Positions 39,923 through 58,219 of a stretch of 64,000 nucleotides of DNA are shown here, one piece after another. Source of the DNA: a virus (taxonomy: Duplodnaviria; Caudoviricetes); the IMG/VR virus record IMGVR_UViG_2519899680_000008, positions 1 through 64,000 of that record; one strand, written 5' to 3'. The notes under the pieces are model-generated. The model was not told the origin of the DNA. It was given only the letters and a program-made list of their open reading frames with translations, and made no database searches. The translations under genes were made by a program, and so were the position numbers. Within the stretch, counting starts at the first letter, position 1; every line of letters begins with the position of its first letter.

Positions 39923-42900
39923 TTACCCGTTCCAGCTCGCGTCGAAGTCATGCACCACGTCTATCAATGCCCGCGCCAGCTCTTCCTTCAGGTTCCGGAT
40001 TTCCGCCTGCCGTCCTTCCTCGGTCTTCATAAGGTCAATGGTACCGATACTGAGCAGGCTGCTGATATTGACGATGACCTGCTTGGGTGCGGCCGACGAA
40101 AGTTTCCCTGTCCCCGAGTAATTACCTCCCGCACCCCCGTCGTCCAGGCCGTTGTTCGTTATCGGGTTGGAATCGAACGGGCGCGTGTCATTCGAGTCCG
40201 GTTCGTTGCTGAACAGCATGGGGGCGAAACCGGCCGAACGGAGGATGTTCTCCGCCGCCTCGGATGAACCGCCGAAGGTCTGGCGGAGCGATGCGGCGAA
40301 TTTCACGAGGGTGTCATGCGCCAGCTTGCGGTGCGCGATATAGTCTTCGCGTTCCTCGTCCGTAACATTTCCGGCCAGTGCTTTCTGTCCCCATTGCCCG
40401 TCTTTCCCCTGCACGTATCCCCACTTTTTCAGCTGCTCGAAATCGAAACCGCCCTTTCTCATCAGCTCCTGCGCCTTGTCCGCACCCGATATGGCATCCC
40501 TGTAAGCCGTCGCCGCACGGATGATTTCCGGAACGGTCTTCCCGTTCATGTATCTGGCATAGTCGTAGGTCTGCGCCGCTATGGCCTCGGGCTTGTCCCC
40601 CAGGTCGGAATTGTATACTATCTTTCCGTCCACCTCGCGCCACAGGGACTTTTCCAGGTCCTTCTCCTGCTGCCCGAAACGTTCCCTGACGGTCTTGATG
40701 AAGGCATTGACCTCCAAGGCGGTCGTCAGCTTGCCGAACTCGGCGTACGCGGAGTTGATGCGTTCCTGGCTGTCACGCTTGGCGAGGGTGATCAGGGCGT
40801 CCCTTATATCGTCCTGCCGGGCGTCATCCGTGTTGTACACGTCATCGACGGTGACCATTCCTTCCGAAGACGCGGCGGCAAACATCCCCAGGAAGCCGGC
40901 CCACCAGTTCCTGGTGAAAAAGCCTATCTTGTGCCCGGAGGCTTCCTCTATGCTCTTGCCCGCCACCACGTCATCCACCGCCCGTTTGGTTTTCAGCGCG
41001 ATCTGGTAGGTCTCGCTCAGGGAGGAATACAACGTCTCGATGGAAGGATAGCGGTACTTGCGGTTTTTCTCGATTTCCTCCAGCACGGCGTCCTTGGCCT
41101 TCTTCACCTGCCATGTCTTGTACGCCACCCAGCCTAACGCCCCGACCAGAGCCGACAAGCCTGCCGTAGCCGCCACGGCTCCCGTGCTGATGGCACTCAA
41201 AGAAGCCGCCGCACCCGTCAGGCTTCCTCCCGTGGCGACTTGCGTGGCGAACAGGGACTGGAGAGCCTGCCGTGTCCCCCAGACACCGCCCCTGGCTGCC
41301 AAAGCCTGCATCATGGCACCCTTCCCCGAAATGCCGGCCGACTGCATGGCTGACACGATGGCCCGTTTCCGGGCAAAACCGGCCTTGCCCAATCCTTTCA
41401 TGCCGGCCAGCCCCTGTATGAGTTCCACAGAGCCGGCAGCGGCCGACTGTTTCCCGATAAAACCCAGGGCGATACCTATATTGGTCAACGCTCCCGCTAT
41501 CTTGAACAGCTGGATGGAGGCATAGCCGGTAAACACGAGCGGTTCTATCCAGTGGAAATTACGGGTAACCCACGCCCCGATATTGCCGAGCAGGGTCATA
41601 ATGTCCAGCAATGCCCGTCCGATGGTGACCAGCCCCCGGGTAAATTCCGGGGCCTTGAACTTTTCCAGGAACGAGTGGAACACCGTACGGATTTCCGGCT
41701 CCAGGATCTCGTACGCCTGCATGAACCCTTCGGAAACCTGCGAGGTGACCTGGTCCCACAAGCCTTTGGTCGTGTTCTGTTTCACAAGTGCCAGCTCGGA
41801 GGCGATGCCGTGCGAGGTACGGTTATGGACAGCCAGTTCCCGCAACTGTCCGTAGTTGCGCACGAACATCATGGCGGCATTGCCCCCGATCTTGCCGAAT
41901 ATCGCCTGCATGTCCGCCATGGAAGCACCCTTCTTGTTCAGCTCCTCGAAAATGTCGGCGATGGGGCGCAGCTTCTCGACCTGCACGCCCGCGATATCAC
42001 GCATCTCCGTGAACCTGACGCCCAGGCGGTCCAGCACCTTCTGCGCTTCTTTGGTCGGCTTGGCGAAACGGGTGGACATGGCACGCAGGGAAGTACCCGC
42101 CAGCGTGCCTTTCAATCCCATGTTACCCAGCAGTCCGACTGCCGCCGCGCTCTCGGTGAAGTCCACGCCCGCCATTCTCAGGTAGCCGGCAGCCATCTTG
42201 TAGCTCTCGGCCATCTCCACGATATTCACGTTGGAGCGGGAAATCGTGGAGGCGATGACATCCGCCACACTGTCCATGCTCCCGTTGCGTATATCGTACC
42301 CCGCCATGATATTGGTAGCGAGGTCGGCGATGTATGCCACGTCGTTGTCCCCGATAAGGGCGAGGTTCGTGATCGGGCGGATGGACTGGTTTATCGTATC
42401 GATTCCCATACCGGCCATTGCCAGATACTTGACGGCCCCTGCCACTTCCACGGCGGTGTACTTCGTGTCGATACCGATTTTACGCACGTGACGGGCCATC
42501 TGGTCGAAACGGGACTCGAATGTCCCGAGGCTGTCGTCCGCCACCTTTAGAATGGAACGGGCGGATTCCATCAGGTTGGCGTATTCGACGGCTTCCGCCA
42601 GTTCCGACCTGAGCAGGCTGTAGCCCATGTAGGCATTCAGCATGGTAGCGAACGGGAGGTCCCTTAACGAGGGGGCACGGGAGTACTGGATACGGTTGAT
42701 GGCCGCACGCCGCTTGCTGCGGTGCAGCGTCCCCGCGGCACTTTGCTCCGCCTGCATCTGCCGTATTGCCTGGACGGCGTTTCGCTGCTTCTCCTCCCTT
42801 GCCTCCTTTTCCGCCTTTACGCGGGCTGCCTCCGCCTGTTTCCGTAACCGCTCGGCTGCTTTTGCCGCGTTGCGCCGTTCCTGTTCCTCCCGTCTTGCCT

Positions 42901-43744
42901 GTTCCTTCTGTCGCCGTTCTTCCGCTTCGGTCCCGGTCTGCCTGCCGCGCTGACGCTGCTGCATCTCGAAAAGCTCGTCGGCCTGGGCGAGTTTCTGGCG
43001 GTGCTTCTGCTGGGAGACGTACAACTGTTCCGCCAGCCTTTGCTGTGCCTTCTCAGGAAGGGCATACGCCGGCAAGGCATACGGGACAGCCACCGGGGCT
43101 CCCGCCTGTGCCGGTAGACCGCTCCCTTGCAGGGAAAACGGGATACGCGCGGCTCCCTTTATCCGTTCCAGCAGGGAGAGGATTTCCTGCAGCCTGCCTT
43201 TGGCGGCATCCGTCCGGATATCCACCTCCTTTCCTTTGCCGAGGGATACAAGCGCGGAATTGATTTTTCCGATAACCTTGGTAATCTGCTTCTGGGCATC
43301 CAGCACGCTACGCACGGACGAGGCGGCGGTGTTCTCGATTTCGGTTTTCCTGAGTTCCGCCGCCTTTTTCTCGTAAAGGCTTTTGGCTTTCGCCTTGATA
43401 CCTTTGCTGTCGAGGGGCTGTCCGGCGTTGATGACCAGGTTGATGCCTTTGGACAGGGTGCCGATTTCCGTCAACAGGTTCTTCACCCGGATCAGCTTCT
43501 CTTCCGTCATCCCGGTCTCGATGGTCAGGCGGTAGTCGAAGTTTCGCCTCTTGCCGTTCTTGGTGCGGAACACCCGGTCGATCTCGTCCATCATGGACTT
43601 GATGTTGTTGACTGCCGGGGTGAGGCTGGCCTTTGCCTGTACCAGCTTGCCGACCGCTTCACCGAAAGCGATGACCTGCTTGGTGCCGGCGGAGGCATCC
43701 ACGTTTATGCTGTAATTGACCTGGTAGTTCTGTTCCTGTGCCAT
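39923..43744 (-). CDS. Tail tape measure protein
   Basis: 1273 aa; TP901-type core (TKYTAVEVAGAVKYLAMAG, AGTSLRAM). Confidence 0.92.
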   Translation of the reverse strand: MAQEQNYQVNYSINVDASAGTKQVIAFGEAVGKLVQAKASLTPAVNNIKSMMDEIDRVFRTKNGKRRNFDYRLTIETGMTEEKLIRVKNLLTEIGTLSKGINLVINAGQPLDSKGIKAKAKSLYEKKAAELRKTEIENTAASSVRSVLDAQKQITKVIGKINSALVSLGKGKEVDIRTDAAKGRLQEILSLLERIKGAARIPFSLQGSGLPAQAGAPVAVPYALPAYALPEKAQQRLAEQLYVSQQKHRQKLAQADELFEMQQRQRGRQTGTEAEERRQKEQARREEQERRNAAKAAERLRKQAEAARVKAEKEAREEKQRNAVQAIRQMQAEQSAAGTLHRSKRRAAINRIQYSRAPSLRDLPFATMLNAYMGYSLLRSELAEAVEYANLMESARSILKVADDSLGTFESRFDQMARHVRKIGIDTKYTAVEVAGAVKYLAMAGMGIDTINQSIRPITNLALIGDNDVAYIADLATNIMAGYDIRNGSMDSVADVIASTISRSNVNIVEMAESYKMAAGYLRMAGVDFTESAAAVGLLGNMGLKGTLAGTSLRAMSTRFAKPTKEAQKVLDRLGVRFTEMRDIAGVQVEKLRPIADIFEELNKKGASMADMQAIFGKIGGNAAMMFVRNYGQLRELAVHNRTSHGIASELALVKQNTTKGLWDQVTSQVSEGFMQAYEILEPEIRTVFHSFLEKFKAPEFTRGLVTIGRALLDIMTLLGNIGAWVTRNFHWIEPLVFTGYASIQLFKIAGALTNIGIALGFIGKQSAAAGSVELIQGLAGMKGLGKAGFARKRAIVSAMQSAGISGKGAMMQALAARGGVWGTRQALQSLFATQVATGGSLTGAAASLSAISTGAVAATAGLSALVGALGWVAYKTWQVKKAKDAVLEEIEKNRKYRYPSIETLYSSLSETYQIALKTKRAVDDVVAGKSIEEASGHKIGFFTRNWWAGFLGMFAAASSEGMVTVDDVYNTDDARQDDIRDALITLAKRDSQERINSAYAEFGKLTTALEVNAFIKTVRERFGQQEKDLEKSLWREVDGKIVYNSDLGDKPEAIAAQTYDYARYMNGKTVPEIIRAATAYRDAISGADKAQELMRKGGFDFEQLKKWGYVQGKDGQWGQKALAGNVTDEEREDYIAHRKLAHDTLVKFAASLRQTFGGSSEAAENILRSAGFAPMLFSNEPDSNDTRPFDSNPITNNGLDDGGAGGNYSGTGKLSSAAPKQVIVNISSLLSIGTIDLMKTEEGRQAEIRNLKEELARALIDVVHDFDASWNG

Positions 43745-43908: not shown

Positions 43909-44115
43909 TCAGTCAGCGGCGGAAGGGGAAACGCCCGGAAGAACCATGCGGCTGGCCAGCATCTGCTCGTGCAGCCACAGGGCCTCCTCCGAAAGCATGG
44001 CGAACTCCTCGTCCGTCATCTCGTCGATATTCACGCCGGGAAAGTAGTGACGCAGGTAAATCATCCGTTGCCGGATGCGCTGATCATCACGTACCGCCCA
44101 GCGGTCTATAAATTT
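43909..44115 (-). CDS. -1 frameshift extension of the tail assembly chaperone (gpGT-like)
   Basis: Slippery A_AAT_TTA at 44115-44109; the -1 frame is open (IDRWAVRDDQRIRQRMIYLRHYFPGV...) to the TGA at 43909. Confidence 0.75.
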   Translation of the reverse strand, partial: KFIDRWAVRDDQRIRQRMIYLRHYFPGVNIDEMTDEEFAMLSEEALWLHEQMLASRMVLPGVSPSAAD

Positions 44116-44462
44116 ACCAGCATGCTCTGGCGGGTGGTGATGAGTTCGGACAACTGCCCCATAAGCCCGAAAAGGAACAACGAATCATCATCTACGAGTT
44201 CCTTGTCGCCCTCGATGAAACAGTCCCTGGCAAGAGTCCTCATGGCAAGCACCTCGTCTTTTTTGGAGGCGGCCATAAATTTGGAAAACTGCGGGAAAGT
44301 CGGCTCTGCCATGAAGGCCACGTAGGACGTTTTTTCTCCGGCCGCCGTATCCCCGAATACGACCATGGGATACACCTTGCGCAGTTTTTTTTCTTCTTTC
44401 AGCTTCAAGGCTCTTTCCTTGATTTTCGCTTCCTGTTCGAGTGTCAGCATTTTTTCTTCCAT
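44106..44462 (-). CDS. Tail assembly chaperone (gpG-like)
   Basis: Position between tube and tape measure; slippery site just before the stop. Confidence 0.8.
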   Translation of the reverse strand: MEEKMLTLEQEAKIKERALKLKEEKKLRKVYPMVVFGDTAAGEKTSYVAFMAEPTFPQFSKFMAASKKDEVLAMRTLARDCFIEGDKELVDDDSLFLFGLMGQLSELITTRQSMLVNL

Positions 44463-48627: not shown

Positions 48628-49173
48628 TCAGCGGAGCTTCTTGAACTTGAAGTCGCTGCCGACCACTTCCGCCACCTTTTCCGCCATCAGCTGCTCGGCA
48701 GTCTTGGCGGTATCTGTCGCGGACTGTATGTTGGCAGGGTCTTCCGCGATTTCCTTGGAAATCTTCTCCCTGGCAGGAATGGACGCCAGCGTGCTCTCTG
48801 CCAGCTCAAAATTGGAGCCGGCCATCTCCACCCACTGCGCCTTTGCCTCGCGGTCGATTTTTCCCTCGTTGATGGCGTTCTCCACCAGCGTCTCGATGCG
48901 TGCAGCCTGCTCGTCCTTCTCCTTCTGTTCATAGGCGGAAAGGCGGGACGTGGCGGTCGCCAGGTCCTTCTGCAGGTTTTGGATGGCGGCATCCTTTCCC
49001 GCGATCACGGTCTGCGCGTCGCTCAGGGACTTCTGCGCTTCCTTGTACTTGGTCTCTATGGCCGCAAGCTCCGATATGCGTGCCATCACGTCCTTGACCT
49101 CCTTGTCCTGCATGCCTAAAGAAGCGGCTATCGCTCCGTATTCGATACCTTGTGTCTTGTTCTCGTTTGCCAT
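48628..49173 (-). CDS. Nested in-frame scaffold protein (MANENKTQ..., 181 aa)
   Basis: Internal ATG preceded by a consensus phage promoter motif at 49192-49221. Confidence 0.6.
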   Translation of the reverse strand: MANENKTQGIEYGAIAASLGMQDKEVKDVMARISELAAIETKYKEAQKSLSDAQTVIAGKDAAIQNLQKDLATATSRLSAYEQKEKDEQAARIETLVENAINEGKIDREAKAQWVEMAGSNFELAESTLASIPAREKISKEIAEDPANIQSATDTAKTAEQLMAEKVAEVVGSDFKFKKLR

Positions 49174-49872
49174 ATTGTCTTCTGTTTCTCTAAGAGTAGG
49201 TGCAGGCGGGATAAAAAGTTTGTTCTCGTCGCAGACGCGGCTCATCAGCTCCTGGATAGCGGTGGTATCGGTCAAGGCGGAAACCTGGTCGTGTACTCTC
49301 TCGCACAACTGTTTCGAGGTACGGATGACATTCCCGGCAGGGATGATACCCGCCTTGACGGCTGCTGCCGCATCGAAATACGTTCCGTCCTTTCCGGCTT
49401 CCCCGTCCATGATGGACCTGACATGTTCCGCCTTCAGCCCGAAGCGTTTCCGGTATATGGTTTCAATCTGGCGGGTGAAAGCCCTGACCATGTCCGAGGC
49501 TTCCCCGTCGCCCTCACCGTCCGGCAACATGGGATTATGTATCATCAGGATGGCATAATCCCTCATGAGAGACCGTCTGCCTGCCGCCCAGATGATCGAT
49601 GCCATGGAAGCCGCCACTCCTTCGATGATACATTCCGTGTCGGTCTTGGAGTTGGCGATGGTGGAATAGGTGGACATTCCGTACAGCACGCTGCCCCCTT
49701 CCGAATTGATCAGTATCCTGATGCAGGACGGGCGTATCACGTTCTCCAGGAAATCGAACTCCTCGTTGAAACGCGAGGTGCTCTCTTCCGTTACCCTTCC
49801 GAAAAAGCGGATGACGGCCGGTTCTCCGGCCTTCACCTCGCCAACGACGTATTGAAGCGTGTTCACATCCAT
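48628..49872 (-). CDS. ClpP-like head maturation protease fused to a scaffold domain
   Basis: INSEGGSV, GVAASMASII, LMIHNP; coiled-coil C-terminal half. Confidence 0.88.
   Translation of the reverse strand: MDVNTLQYVVGEVKAGEPAVIRFFGRVTEESTSRFNEEFDFLENVIRPSCIRILINSEGGSVLYGMSTYSTIANSKTDTECIIEGVAASMASIIWAAGRRSLMRDYAILMIHNPMLPDGEGDGEASDMVRAFTRQIETIYRKRFGLKAEHVRSIMDGEAGKDGTYFDAAAAVKAGIIPAGNVIRTSKQLCERVHDQVSALTDTTAIQELMSRVCDENKLFIPPAPTLRETEDNMANENKTQGIEYGAIAASLGMQDKEVKDVMARISELAAIETKYKEAQKSLSDAQTVIAGKDAAIQNLQKDLATATSRLSAYEQKEKDEQAARIETLVENAINEGKIDREAKAQWVEMAGSNFELAESTLASIPAREKISKEIAEDPANIQSATDTAKTAEQLMAEKVAEVVGSDFKFKKLR
49192..49221 (-). promoter_or_regulatory. Intragenic putative phage-sigma promoter (AAACT-N17-CTACTCTT)
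   Basis: Bipartite motif copy inside the protease CDS. Confidence 0.65.
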
Positions 49873-50799: not shown

Positions 50800-51376
50800 C
50801 GTGCGGGAATCCTTTAAAAATCATATCCATAAAATGCGAGGCTATATATTCTTCCACTCCCGGGGAAAAACCGATGAACTGCCGGTGGACGGGACGACGG
50901 GATGAATACTGGTTGACAGTGTACAGCCCGAATTTCGGGTCGGTGTTGTGGACGGCTGCATAGTGCCCGTACCGTTCGCGGCTCTTGCCCCGCTTTCCTT
51001 TGGCCGGAACGCTTTTCTCCGTTGTCCAGATGGTGTAATAGGCCCCCTTGCGGAAAATGCGCGTGCGGTTGGTACGGCGTCCCTCGATATCCACCCGTGA
51101 AGCTTTCCCCTCTATGCTCCTGGCCAGCGTCCCGGTATCGTTCATCATCGGATGGGTGAACCTCTTTCCCCACCTGGATGTCCGGGGAGCCCATTTGCTT
51201 TCCCCGCAGAAGCCCCCGGAGGAGAACGAGGACTGGAACCGCCCCTTCGTGTATTCCCCCGCGGCGGTGACGAAATCGAATACATTGTGTTCCAGCCGGC
51301 TTGCCATCACCCGGGTCCATTTCCCCTGTACCCAATGGGAGCAGAATTCATCAAGCGTTATCTTGGGCATAGGCAA
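50786..51376 (-). CDS. Virion morphogenesis protein (Mu gpG / tail completion-like)
   Basis: KWAPR, NDTGTLARSI, YAAVHN, RQFIG motifs. Confidence 0.75.
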   Translation of the reverse strand: MPMPKITLDEFCSHWVQGKWTRVMASRLEHNVFDFVTAAGEYTKGRFQSSFSSGGFCGESKWAPRTSRWGKRFTHPMMNDTGTLARSIEGKASRVDIEGRRTNRTRIFRKGAYYTIWTTEKSVPAKGKRGKSRERYGHYAAVHNTDPKFGLYTVNQYSSRRPVHRQFIGFSPGVEEYIASHFMDMIFKGFPHDDKR

Positions 51377-52229
51377 ACCGGGATTTCAGGCGGGCGACCG
51401 TTTCCTTGACGTGTTCCGGCAGAGGTAGGGAGAAGTACCTGTGCGCGTCGGAGAATATCCGCCCCCCAGTTGCGAGACTCTCCCTGAATACGGGGTCTGT
51501 CATCCGGCGGACGCCCCTGTTCACAGCCGAAGCATGGACGGAAGCAAAACCGTTGGAGACCAGGAAGCAGCGGCATCCCCAGTCGATAGGCGGAATCAGC
51601 TCGGGAGGGAACTCGGACTTGCGGAAAGAGACCCCCTCGAGGGAAAGGTGCAGCGCGCGGACGCGCTCGTCGCCCTGTGTCATGTACGTGATGACGGAAT
51701 CACCATCCACCGTAATCCACCAGGCAGCCATCGCTGCGGCGAAAAACACCTGGCCGTTCTCCTGTTCCGCATAGGTGAGATTGTACCGCTCGCAGATATC
51801 TTCATACTCGGGCAGCCTGTCCCCGTCAGGTTCGTCCGGCAGTTCCCTGTACATGGAGTATTCTTCCGCGGCGGCAAAGTCTATCAGGTTCTCTACCGCA
51901 GCAACGAGGATCTCCCGCTGCTGCCGTTCCCGTTCTGTCATCGCCCCGTTATGGTTTCTGAGAATATCCAATGCCCGGTCGAAGTCCATCCTGAACCCGC
52001 TCAATGCCCTATCTATCAGAAAGGAGGCCCGCAGGGTGATGATGTCCTCCAGCAAGTCCCGCCTTTCCGCACTGTCTTCCCAGTGCCGGACGAGCCTGCG
52101 GAATGCCTTGAGGATGATACGGTATTCCTTTCCGGTGTCCGTTTCGTCTTTTTCCCTGTCCTTGCCTGTTTCCGTTCGGCCTTCCGGGAGCGGAAGCCGG
52201 GCCGTTATTCCGCTCCCGTGAGAAAATTT
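51351..52229 (-). CDS. Minor head protein (Mu gpF/SPP1 gp7-like); frame open back to the portal slippery site
   Basis: YMTQGDERVRALH, PPIDWGCRC; no ATG/GTG/TTG upstream of TTG 52055 although the frame is open to 52229. Confidence 0.75.
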   Translation of the reverse strand, partial: KFSHGSGITARLPLPEGRTETGKDREKDETDTGKEYRIILKAFRRLVRHWEDSAERRDLLEDIITLRASFLIDRALSGFRMDFDRALDILRNHNGAMTERERQQREILVAAVENLIDFAAAEEYSMYRELPDEPDGDRLPEYEDICERYNLTYAEQENGQVFFAAAMAAWWITVDGDSVITYMTQGDERVRALHLSLEGVSFRKSEFPPELIPPIDWGCRCFLVSNGFASVHASAVNRGVRRMTDPVFRESLATGGRIFSDAHRYFSLPLPEHVKETVARLKSRFAYAQDNA

Positions 52230-57424: not shown

Positions 57425-58219
57425 TTATTTCAGCAATTTGTCAATCAGCTTTTCCCTTACTACCCCGTAAGCCTCATGCGGGTCAAACGTGATATCCGGA
57501 CGCAGGAGCAGCTGGGAATCCGAAAGGAAATCCGGGTCCTGCATCTTTTCCTCCATGTTGAGGATGAACTGCTTATGGGTAGGAGGTTGCTGCACCACGA
57601 ACCCGATGTAACGTTTGTAGCAACGAATGACATCATCCGTATTCACCCCCGTTTTTGTCAGAGCCAGGTACAGGTCGAGAAGGTCACGACCTTTCTTTCG
57701 CTGGTACAATGCCCGCAGTTTCGTACCGAGCAGTTCGGCAAGATTGTAGGTGGTGATTTCACACGAGCCGGAAAACCACTGGTTTTCCAACGAAAACGGC
57801 ATTTTGACAAATCCCATCTCGGTAAAGTGTTCAAAACAGTTGATTTCAATCTTCAAACGCAGTTGTATCGGAGGAGTTCCTTCAGATTGGATACGGCAAA
57901 GCATCGTGTTGTTGTAACGTTTCTGTTTCGTCACCCTGTCCGGAATGAAATCCAGTACTTTACCAAGACGGAACATGATAGGCTTGATGGGACCTGCCGT
58001 AATCTGCACGAGGTCAATGTCCTCGCTGTATCTGACCTGCGGAAGCATGTGTAGCTTATGAAGGGCTGTTCCTCCCCGGAAAGCCAGTTGGGATGCAAGA
58101 AAATCGTCTCCGAAAATGGAGACCAGGGCACGGGATATTATCAGGTCCTGCTCAATGTATGACACATCAGTCCATGGGGCGTGTTCACGCCATTGTTGTA
58201 TTGCGGATTTTACTACCAT
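57425..58219 (-). CDS. abiEii: AbiEii-family nucleotidyltransferase toxin
   Basis: IEQDL, AFRGGTALHK, RYSEDIDL, KLRALYQRKKGRDLLD. Confidence 0.9.
   Translation of the reverse strand: MVVKSAIQQWREHAPWTDVSYIEQDLIISRALVSIFGDDFLASQLAFRGGTALHKLHMLPQVRYSEDIDLVQITAGPIKPIMFRLGKVLDFIPDRVTKQKRYNNTMLCRIQSEGTPPIQLRLKIEINCFEHFTEMGFVKMPFSLENQWFSGSCEITTYNLAELLGTKLRALYQRKKGRDLLDLYLALTKTGVNTDDVIRCYKRYIGFVVQQPPTHKQFILNMEEKMQDPDFLSDSQLLLRPDITFDPHEAYGVVREKLIDKLLK

Follow-up and report, generated by a model that had tools for sequence, protein, structure and literature searches.

In tailed phages, programmed frameshifting is textbook knowledge at the tail chaperone pair, and a few capsid and tail genes are also known to use it. 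Proteins of the MuF family are minor head components associated with the portal, and MuF/gp7-type proteins are found inside the head. The classical example of such recoding is the -1 frameshift of the lambda-type tail assembly chaperones gpG/gpGT (Levin et al, 1993; Xu, Hendrix and Duda, 2004; as cited in PMC7302621 and PMC8008677). A -1 frameshift is also listed for the major head protein gp5A/gp5B of Lactobacillus phage A2 (Garcia et al, 2004, PMC355979, in PMC10885494), and genes in which portal and MuF are fused have been described in Microbacterium phages of clusters EA3/EA5/EA8 and EB (PMC7302621). Here we examine the junction between a Mu-type portal gene and a MuF-like (gpF-like) reading frame in a stretch of 64,000 nucleotides of tailed-phage DNA (IMG/VR record IMGVR_UViG_2519899680_000008, positions 1 to 64,000), which we refer to as the window. 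An initial annotation, made from these letters alone, had predicted a -1 ribosomal frameshift joining the two proteins. Comparison with relatives supports this prediction, and on that evidence the 3′ end of the portal gene of this Bacteroidales prophage is very probably the site of a conserved -1 programmed ribosomal frameshift (PRF).

All coordinates are window positions, and the whole cassette is read on the minus strand (Table 1). The portal open reading frame (ORF) ends ...GTG CTA AAT TTT CTC ACG GGA GCG GAA TAA, with five sense codons between an A_AAT_TTT heptamer and the stop. The details given in the initial annotation all proved correct: the heptamer is in phase, and a perfect 11-bp stem follows after a spacer of 4-5 nt. 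The loop of this hairpin is 12 nt long (52207-52196) with the portal stop codon at its start, and the predicted minimum free energy (MFE) is -25.3 kcal/mol. Between 52295 and its stop at 51353-51351 the -1 frame is uninterrupted; it reads F-SHGSGITARLPLPEG... after the slip and passes into the MuF-like ORF, where, again in agreement with the initial annotation, no ATG or GTG precedes a weak TTG. Since portal and MuF lie in different frames, the window has no uninterrupted two-domain ORF. The conceptual portal-MuF fusion is 722 aa long, against a predicted size of about 720 aa, and its conceptual tryptic junction peptide is VLNFSHGSGITAR.

Relatives were collected by IMG/VR scans with the window portal and with a 63%-identical portal, from GTDB genomes and from one phage record, giving ~190 loci. 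The hosts named in the genome records are Bacteroidales (Alistipes, Bacteroides, Phocaeicola, Segatella, Muribaculaceae and others). Portal and MuF were located by tblastn without use of the heptamer, in place of a motif-based location of MuF ORFs that missed half of the loci, and identical junctions were collapsed. This left 88 distinct junctions, drawn from Bacteroidales prophages, viral contigs and the cultured phage BS-TP1. In 71 of the 88, an in-phase AAATTTT goes together with a -1-frame MuF and with a hairpin whose arms covary. Put differently, of the 74 distinct junctions in which MuF is in the -1 frame and no ATG is near (none within -25..+10 of the portal stop), 71 have the heptamer in phase. 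In 12 junctions, by contrast, an ATG abuts the portal stop, and here heptamer and hairpin are both gone: Asn-Phe is mostly written AAC TTC or AAT TTC, and MuF stands in any of three frame relations to the portal (+1, 0, or -1 with an ATGA overlap). Over 47 nt around the portal stop the mean MFE is -18.6 kcal/mol for frameshift-type junctions versus -3.2 kcal/mol for the ATG type. The signals of the cassette are therefore present, conserved, covarying and inversely associated with an ordinary MuF start codon.

The slip site itself is more uniform than the protein would demand. In the codon before AAT, Ala, Gly, Val, Glu, Ser, Leu or Thr is encoded, always as NNA (GCA, GGA, GTA, GAA, TCA, CTA or ACA), while elsewhere in the same portals A makes up 17% of third positions, AAT 37% of Asn codons and TTT 35% of Phe codons; the portals in this comparison were chosen by the heptamer itself, and the unbiased measure is the contingency across the 88 junctions. 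Taken together, the comparisons indicate that the slip site is under selection at the nucleotide level, beyond what the amino acids require. Downstream, the zero-frame portal stop is held 5-6 codons past the heptamer, with TAA, TAG and TGA all in use, and the -1 codon that overlaps it stays Ile or Val (ATA, GTA, GTG, GTC or GTT), as predicted for a -1 frame that is translated. The retention of this stop also bears on the possibility that the frame break is a sequencing or assembly indel in an in-frame portal-MuF gene, or the mark of a defective prophage. In favour of such an explanation, in-frame fusions of the same two domains do exist. However, the same frame relation and signals recur in ~150 independently assembled loci, including complete isolate genomes (for example NZ_AP031424) and a cultured phage, and portal and MuF are otherwise intact, so that we give an artefact or decay practically no credence.

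RNAfold returned a hairpin in every frameshift-type junction, its conserved core starting 5 nt past the heptamer and comprising ~11-12 pairs on average. The arms diverge between lineages, each with a matching partner (GGGAGCGGAA, GGGAACGGAG, GGGAATGGAA, GGGGACGGAA, GGGAGCAGGAA, GGGAGAGAAAG, GGAAGAGGAA and GGAGAGGGG). In a plain MAFFT alignment of 51 distinct rows, with the window's own pairing as reference, 81.6% of cells pair and 9 of the 11 stem pairs show double-sided changes. The covariation score of 0.35, compared with 0.22 in shuffles, was reached by none of 500 shuffles and is at its maximum at slide 0; this result was obtained with one subfamily one column out of register. Both the conservation of the heptamer and the covariation of the stem, which had been proposed as checks on the predicted frameshift, are thus borne out. 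The hairpin also helps to separate ribosomal frameshifting from slippage of RNA polymerase on the A3T4 run, by which the shifted frame would arise in the mRNA. Some relatives (the L059 group) do have a longer A4T6 tract, but known programmed transcriptional slippage needs homopolymer runs of ~9 or more, and the run here has 3 A and 4 T. Moreover, polymerase slippage has no need of a hairpin, whereas the X_XXY_YYZ phase, together with a covarying hairpin 5 nt downstream, is a hallmark of slippage by the ribosome. We regard a transcriptional origin as highly improbable.

One complete genome, that of Alistipes sp. i18-0019-D1 (NZ_AP031424), contains two related prophages (L087 and L107), both with the cassette and with unlike stems (GGGGAGCGGAA against GGGGAGCGCAG).

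The shifted frame is open wherever it would have to be translated. A linker was defined as the stretch between the portal stop and the onset of MuF homology (mean 94 nt). Across 77 distinct linkers the -1 frame contains no stop at all (77/77 open), while 57 stops fall in the portal frame and 193 in the +1 frame. Several lineages have a -1-frame stop directly before the heptamer, so that the frame opens exactly at the slip site. Within this open frame, the alignment shows a junction/linker that differs in length and sequence from lineage to lineage.

The other side of the argument concerns how MuF might be translated without a frameshift. Free-standing MuF proteins begin ~12 residues ahead of the EY motif in the alignment, and the ATG-started MuF proteins of three relatives (L075, L078 and L079), whose ATG sits a few bases past the portal stop, begin MAERIETKQPDKSREEYQLILDAFRRMV..., aligning with ...KDETDTGKEYRIILKAFRRLV of the window. 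The TTG at 52055 was considered as the MuF start and rejected: ATG-started homologues and an in-frame fusion (P0002, below) align upstream of it, by ~24 residues for L075, L078 and L079. Since this TTG lies inside a conserved block, the N-terminus of the window MuF is out of reach of any canonical start codon. Among the relatives, the first canonical start in the MuF frame falls anywhere from -1 to +227 relative to the portal stop, and in many lineages within the conserved protein, a scatter that is as expected if no start were under selection. With its MuF frame lacking a usable start, the window phage would probably have the portal-MuF fusion as its main or only source of MuF.

It is nevertheless conceivable that MuF is made separately, with initiation at TTG 52055 or at a non-canonical codon, or by ribosomes that terminate at the portal stop and reinitiate there. 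The hairpin would then have another role, such as in mRNA stability or translational coupling. Bacteroidota are not reliant on Shine-Dalgarno (SD) pairing and their start sites are hard to predict, and in some relatives a GTG at -1 or an ATG at +2 to +56, counted from the portal stop, does occur. The same idea is implicit in the record of the cultured Bacteroides phage BS-TP1 (L136; PQ571274.1, 54021-56245; host B. salyersiae BG8), where MuF is annotated to begin at an ATG that lies 113 nt past the portal stop. Inspection of this locus showed that heptamer, hairpin and open -1 frame are all present there, unannotated (A_AAT_TTT followed by a GGAGAGGGG/CCCCTCTCC hairpin). Against a separate start, no start codon is conserved, the codon at the stop overlap being as variable as listed above and the first canonical start as scattered. 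Furthermore, separate initiation leaves unexplained both the invariant phased heptamer with its forced third-position A and the joint loss of heptamer and hairpin exactly at the stops abutted by an ATG. We therefore consider a separate start unlikely and favour the -1 frameshift.

Five of the 88 junctions are exceptions to this division. One (L077) has G_AAT_TTT with hairpin and open -1 frame kept, and another (L099) has TCT TTT, likewise with hairpin and open -1 frame kept, and an ATG at +23; these two may be transitional between the frameshift and separate-start types. A third (L072) combines a complete cassette with an ATG at +2, and a fourth (L079) is in reality of the ATG type. In the fifth (L086, from the metagenome-assembled genome Alistipes sp. 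RGIG9564), the portal frame is broken by a stop in the conserved ...DIKTFTMSNSE block, which is either a decayed copy or an assembly error.

A lineage comprising L059-L070, L072 and L089 has an unusual junction, AAAATTTTTTG, that is, a second, overlapping heptamer T_TTT_TTG. These loci have GTG/ATG codons at -1/+2 of the portal stop, and the open stretch of their -1 frame begins right at the heptamer. In this lineage MuF may be made both by frameshifting and from a start of its own.

The distribution of the two states was examined on a FastTree tree whose root is not known, built from 100 distinct portal proteins after trimming of the 25 C-terminal residues. The frameshift state is found at 83 of the 100 tips and across the whole tree, down to ~60% portal and 36-45% MuF identity. 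Portals without the frameshift fall into four separate clades that differ in the architecture of their junctions, and at least four changes are required; most simply, an ordinary start would have replaced the cassette four times independently. Homologues with a normal gpF start and neither slip site nor stem, which the initial annotation had named as the finding that would count against a frameshift, were encountered in four nested minority clades only. On the tree these clades look like replacements of the frameshift rather than the normal state of the family.

Table 1. Features of the portal-MuF region, in window positions
Feature	Position	Strand	Details
Portal gene (zero frame), 437 aa	53518..52205	-	Stop TAA 52207-52205; PF06074 Portal_Mu, E 1.8e-46
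Slippery heptamer A_AAT_TTT	52229-52223	-	X_XXY_YYZ phase of the portal frame
Spacer CTCA	52219..52222	-	4 nt to first pair, 5 nt to conserved stem core
Hairpin, 11 perfect bp	52185..52218	-	CGGGAGCGGAA (52218-52208) pairs with TTCCGCTCCCG (52195-52185)
Trans-frame (-1) reading frame, 290 aa: junction/linker, then MuF-like protein	52223..51351	-	From re-read T52223 to stop 51353-51351
Junction peptide and variable linker, SHGSGITARLPLPEGRTETGKDREKDETDTGK	52128..52222	-	Between portal body and conserved MuF N-terminus EYRIILKAFRRLV...; from alignment
TTG, first ATG/GTG/TTG of the MuF frame	52053..52055	-	Inside conserved block ...SAERRDLLEDIITLR
Phage_Mu_F domain (PF04233)	51561..51788	-	E 3.9e-7; residues 170-245 of the stop-to-stop ORF
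ClpP-type protease	48628-49872		Downstream of portal-MuF

A covalent product of the two proteins has natural counterparts. One is P0002, a protein of 729 aa with Portal_Mu and Phage_Mu_F in one ORF, whose MuF part is 40% identical to that of the window. Read at the protein level, its junction runs ...EEYFRRYGHER, then a Lys-rich linker, then EYKAIYNIFKRY without a break, and its module is syntenic with the window (fusion, two small genes, ClpP-type protease). All ten of the longer matches tested (10/10) proved to be Portal_Mu plus Phage_Mu_F, some with a C-terminal toxin domain. Because such in-frame fusions occur in nature, a fused portal-MuF product is plausible by analogy. The C-terminal crown of solved portals faces the capsid interior, so a MuF domain attached at the C-terminus would lie inside the head.

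Several of these proteins carry a third part: P0003-P0005, P0089 and P0117 are single ORFs of 820-880 aa with Portal_Mu, Phage_Mu_F and a C-terminal toxin-type nuclease (PBECR2 or CdiA_C). Portal-MuF-toxin triple fusions therefore exist as natural single ORFs.

These observations suggest a model in which most ribosomes would read AAT TTT CTC ACG GGA GCG GAA and end at TAA, yielding the 437-aa portal; such unshifted ribosomes would melt the 5′ arm of the hairpin and terminate at the TAA in its loop. A fraction would pause at the hairpin 4-5 nt past the heptamer. The P site would then have tRNA-Asn paired to AAU and the A site tRNA-Phe paired to UUU, and the two tRNAs would move back one base onto AAA UUU. 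Shifted ribosomes would then read TCT CAC GGG... and pass through the junction/linker of ~33 residues into MuF, producing the 722-aa fusion. Fused subunits would be expected to co-assemble into the portal dodecamer with the MuF part inside the capsid, and the downstream ClpP-type prohead protease may later cleave the fusion. The suggestion of the initial annotation, that a minority of portal subunits carries MuF and that this fixes its low stoichiometry, is a reasonable inference; a low MuF stoichiometry is not obligatory, since with in-frame fusions all twelve subunits would carry MuF. As a more speculative and distinctly tentative extension, the frameshift could be the only route to MuF in this clade, with its efficiency setting how many of the twelve subunits bear MuF. 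The tether would load MuF, and in relatives the toxin domains fused to it, until the ClpP-type protease cuts the fusion and MuF leaves with the DNA.

Several points weigh against this interpretation. AAATTTT is common in the window (15 copies versus ~9 expected), and, for the window sequence alone, the hairpin has a fold z-score of -1.81, with 7 of 200 shuffles folding equally well. The window site by itself is thus not beyond chance, and its significance is taken from position, phase and conservation in relatives. The spacer of 4-5 nt is at the short end of the usual range (~5-9 nt). The third-position excess in the linker is weak (70 variable sites versus 51 and 52), as expected for a loosely constrained linker; indeed, the variability of the linker and its weak codon signal would fit a flexible tether. 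The L059 group, L072 and L014 have the full cassette together with a GTG or ATG at or near the portal stop, and separate initiation may occur alongside the cassette in them. Finally, the P-site shift from AAU to AAA leaves a wobble mismatch for tRNA-Asn. In favour of the heptamer, AAAUUUU is the accepted ORF1a/1b slip site of roniviruses (PMC3169540).

The domain assignments on which the model depends differ in strength. In a profile search the window portal scored 159.5 bits against PF06074 (cut-off 23.9), whereas the window MuF scored 31.2 bits against PF04233, barely above the cut-off of 29.6; homologues with the same domain support the latter assignment. A PDB sequence search with the window portal and MuF returned no matches. 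The AlphaFold model of the portal has a mean predicted local distance difference test (pLDDT) value of 63.6, with low confidence for the C-terminal 60 residues, and its top Foldseek matches are the solved portals of Mu-like phage JBD30 and phage Mu (E 1e-9). A C-terminal motif, SDEEY[FY][RK]RYG, follows a Gly/Ser-rich low-confidence stretch at portal residues ~411-426 (~52288-52241, minus strand). The motif is kept alike in frameshift-type, ATG-type and in-frame-fused relatives and could be a docking or cleavage site.

Searches for other signals in the region were negative. Rfam returned no known RNA family over the slip site, and its match to HCV_SL8001 (E 0.24), elsewhere in the stretch, is a chance match. 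No conserved upstream SD-like element was seen at the portal slip site. A scan for sigma-70 promoters and terminators, which does not model Bacteroidales promoters, gave nothing meaningful between portal and MuF. A candidate Bacteroides -7 box (TAnnTTTG) overlapping TAAATTTT was rejected because its leading T is not kept in relatives (GCAAATTTT, GGAAATTTT). A few kb upstream of the portal module lies a gene for an AbiEii-family nucleotidyltransferase toxin (PF08843, E 2e-31; 57425-58219, minus strand). Identity of the window prophage with the Hankyphage was not supported: the phage collection gave only MT835494 (86%) and BS-TP1 (62%).

Full-text literature searches did not turn up any account of recoding within portal genes or at the point where portal and MuF meet. 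The PRFect study (PMC10885494) has MuF-like/VIP2 fusion genes among its possible frameshift calls and does not mention portal-MuF, and the BS-TP1 paper (PMC12694917) does not mention frameshifting. What is known already is therefore -1 PRF and, separately, in-frame portal-MuF fusion; a published account of portal-MuF recoding was not found. If a conserved cassette extends the portal by an entire head protein, phage recoding would gain a further class, one that would occur in hundreds of prophages of gut Bacteroidales as well as in at least one cultured phage. A covalent, ratio-controlled tether would offer a simple and testable answer to the question of how low-copy MuF/gp7-type proteins, and the toxin cargo fused to them, reach the portal vertex and the capsid interior. 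There is also a practical consequence: because the MuF genes of this clade are called from arbitrary downstream starts, the corresponding database proteins would be truncated. The portal-MuF site would further provide a natural -1 PRF element, supported by covariation, for recoding studies in Bacteroidota, whose translation initiation is unusual.

The window contains a possible second slip site. A 118-aa ORF just upstream of the tape measure gene (39923-43744) ends CTG GTA AAT TTA TAG (region 43909-44462, minus strand). An A_AAT_TTA heptamer (44115-44109, minus strand) stands in phase right at its stop, within a -1 frame of 91 open codons (44184-43909). The arrangement is that of the classical tail chaperone G/GT frameshift, and the site has the AAAUUU core in common with the portal site. 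By analogy, its location at the tail chaperone position suggests that this type of heptamer works in the host of the window phage.

Compared with the lambda-type gpG/gpGT pair, the portal-MuF junction has the same plan: an X_XXY_YYZ -1 slip near the end of an upstream structural gene would give a minority fusion with a downstream ORF that lacks a start, and in both systems the position is conserved across very diverse phages. It differs in that the pair here is portal and MuF, in the head module, and in that a strong covarying hairpin belongs to the signal, whereas lambda G_GGA_AAG works without a defined structure. The predicted product also differs, since it would be a component of the virion or prohead, whereas lambda gpGT is a chaperone absent from the virion. 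In its signal, the portal-MuF site also resembles the bacterial -1 PRF elements of the IS3 family (OrfA/OrfAB of IS911 and IS150) and E. coli dnaX, in which a heptamer is followed by a stem-loop a few nt downstream. As in the IS3 elements, a zero-frame stop lies just past the slip site and the shift would fuse two ORFs. Those systems, however, use A_AAA_AAG and tRNA-Lys, often with an upstream SD-like stimulator, whereas the site here is A_AAU_UUU, in Bacteroidales hosts.

Among head genes, the phage A2 case is alike in that a gene of the head module is extended at its C-terminus by -1 PRF to give a second capsid component, which is essential in A2. There, a short unique tail is added to the major capsid protein; here, a whole second protein with its own Pfam family would be added to the portal. 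SPP1 gp6/gp7 and Mu gpH/gpF represent the same two protein families, likewise encoded side by side, but there MuF is translated from its own start and binds to the portal instead of being linked to it by a peptide bond. The in-frame portal-MuF fusions, both those of the Microbacterium phages and those found here (P0002, P0070-P0148), contain the same two domains in the same order. In a single ORF, however, every subunit carries MuF, whereas in the window phage and its relatives a recoding signal would decide what fraction of the portal is fused.

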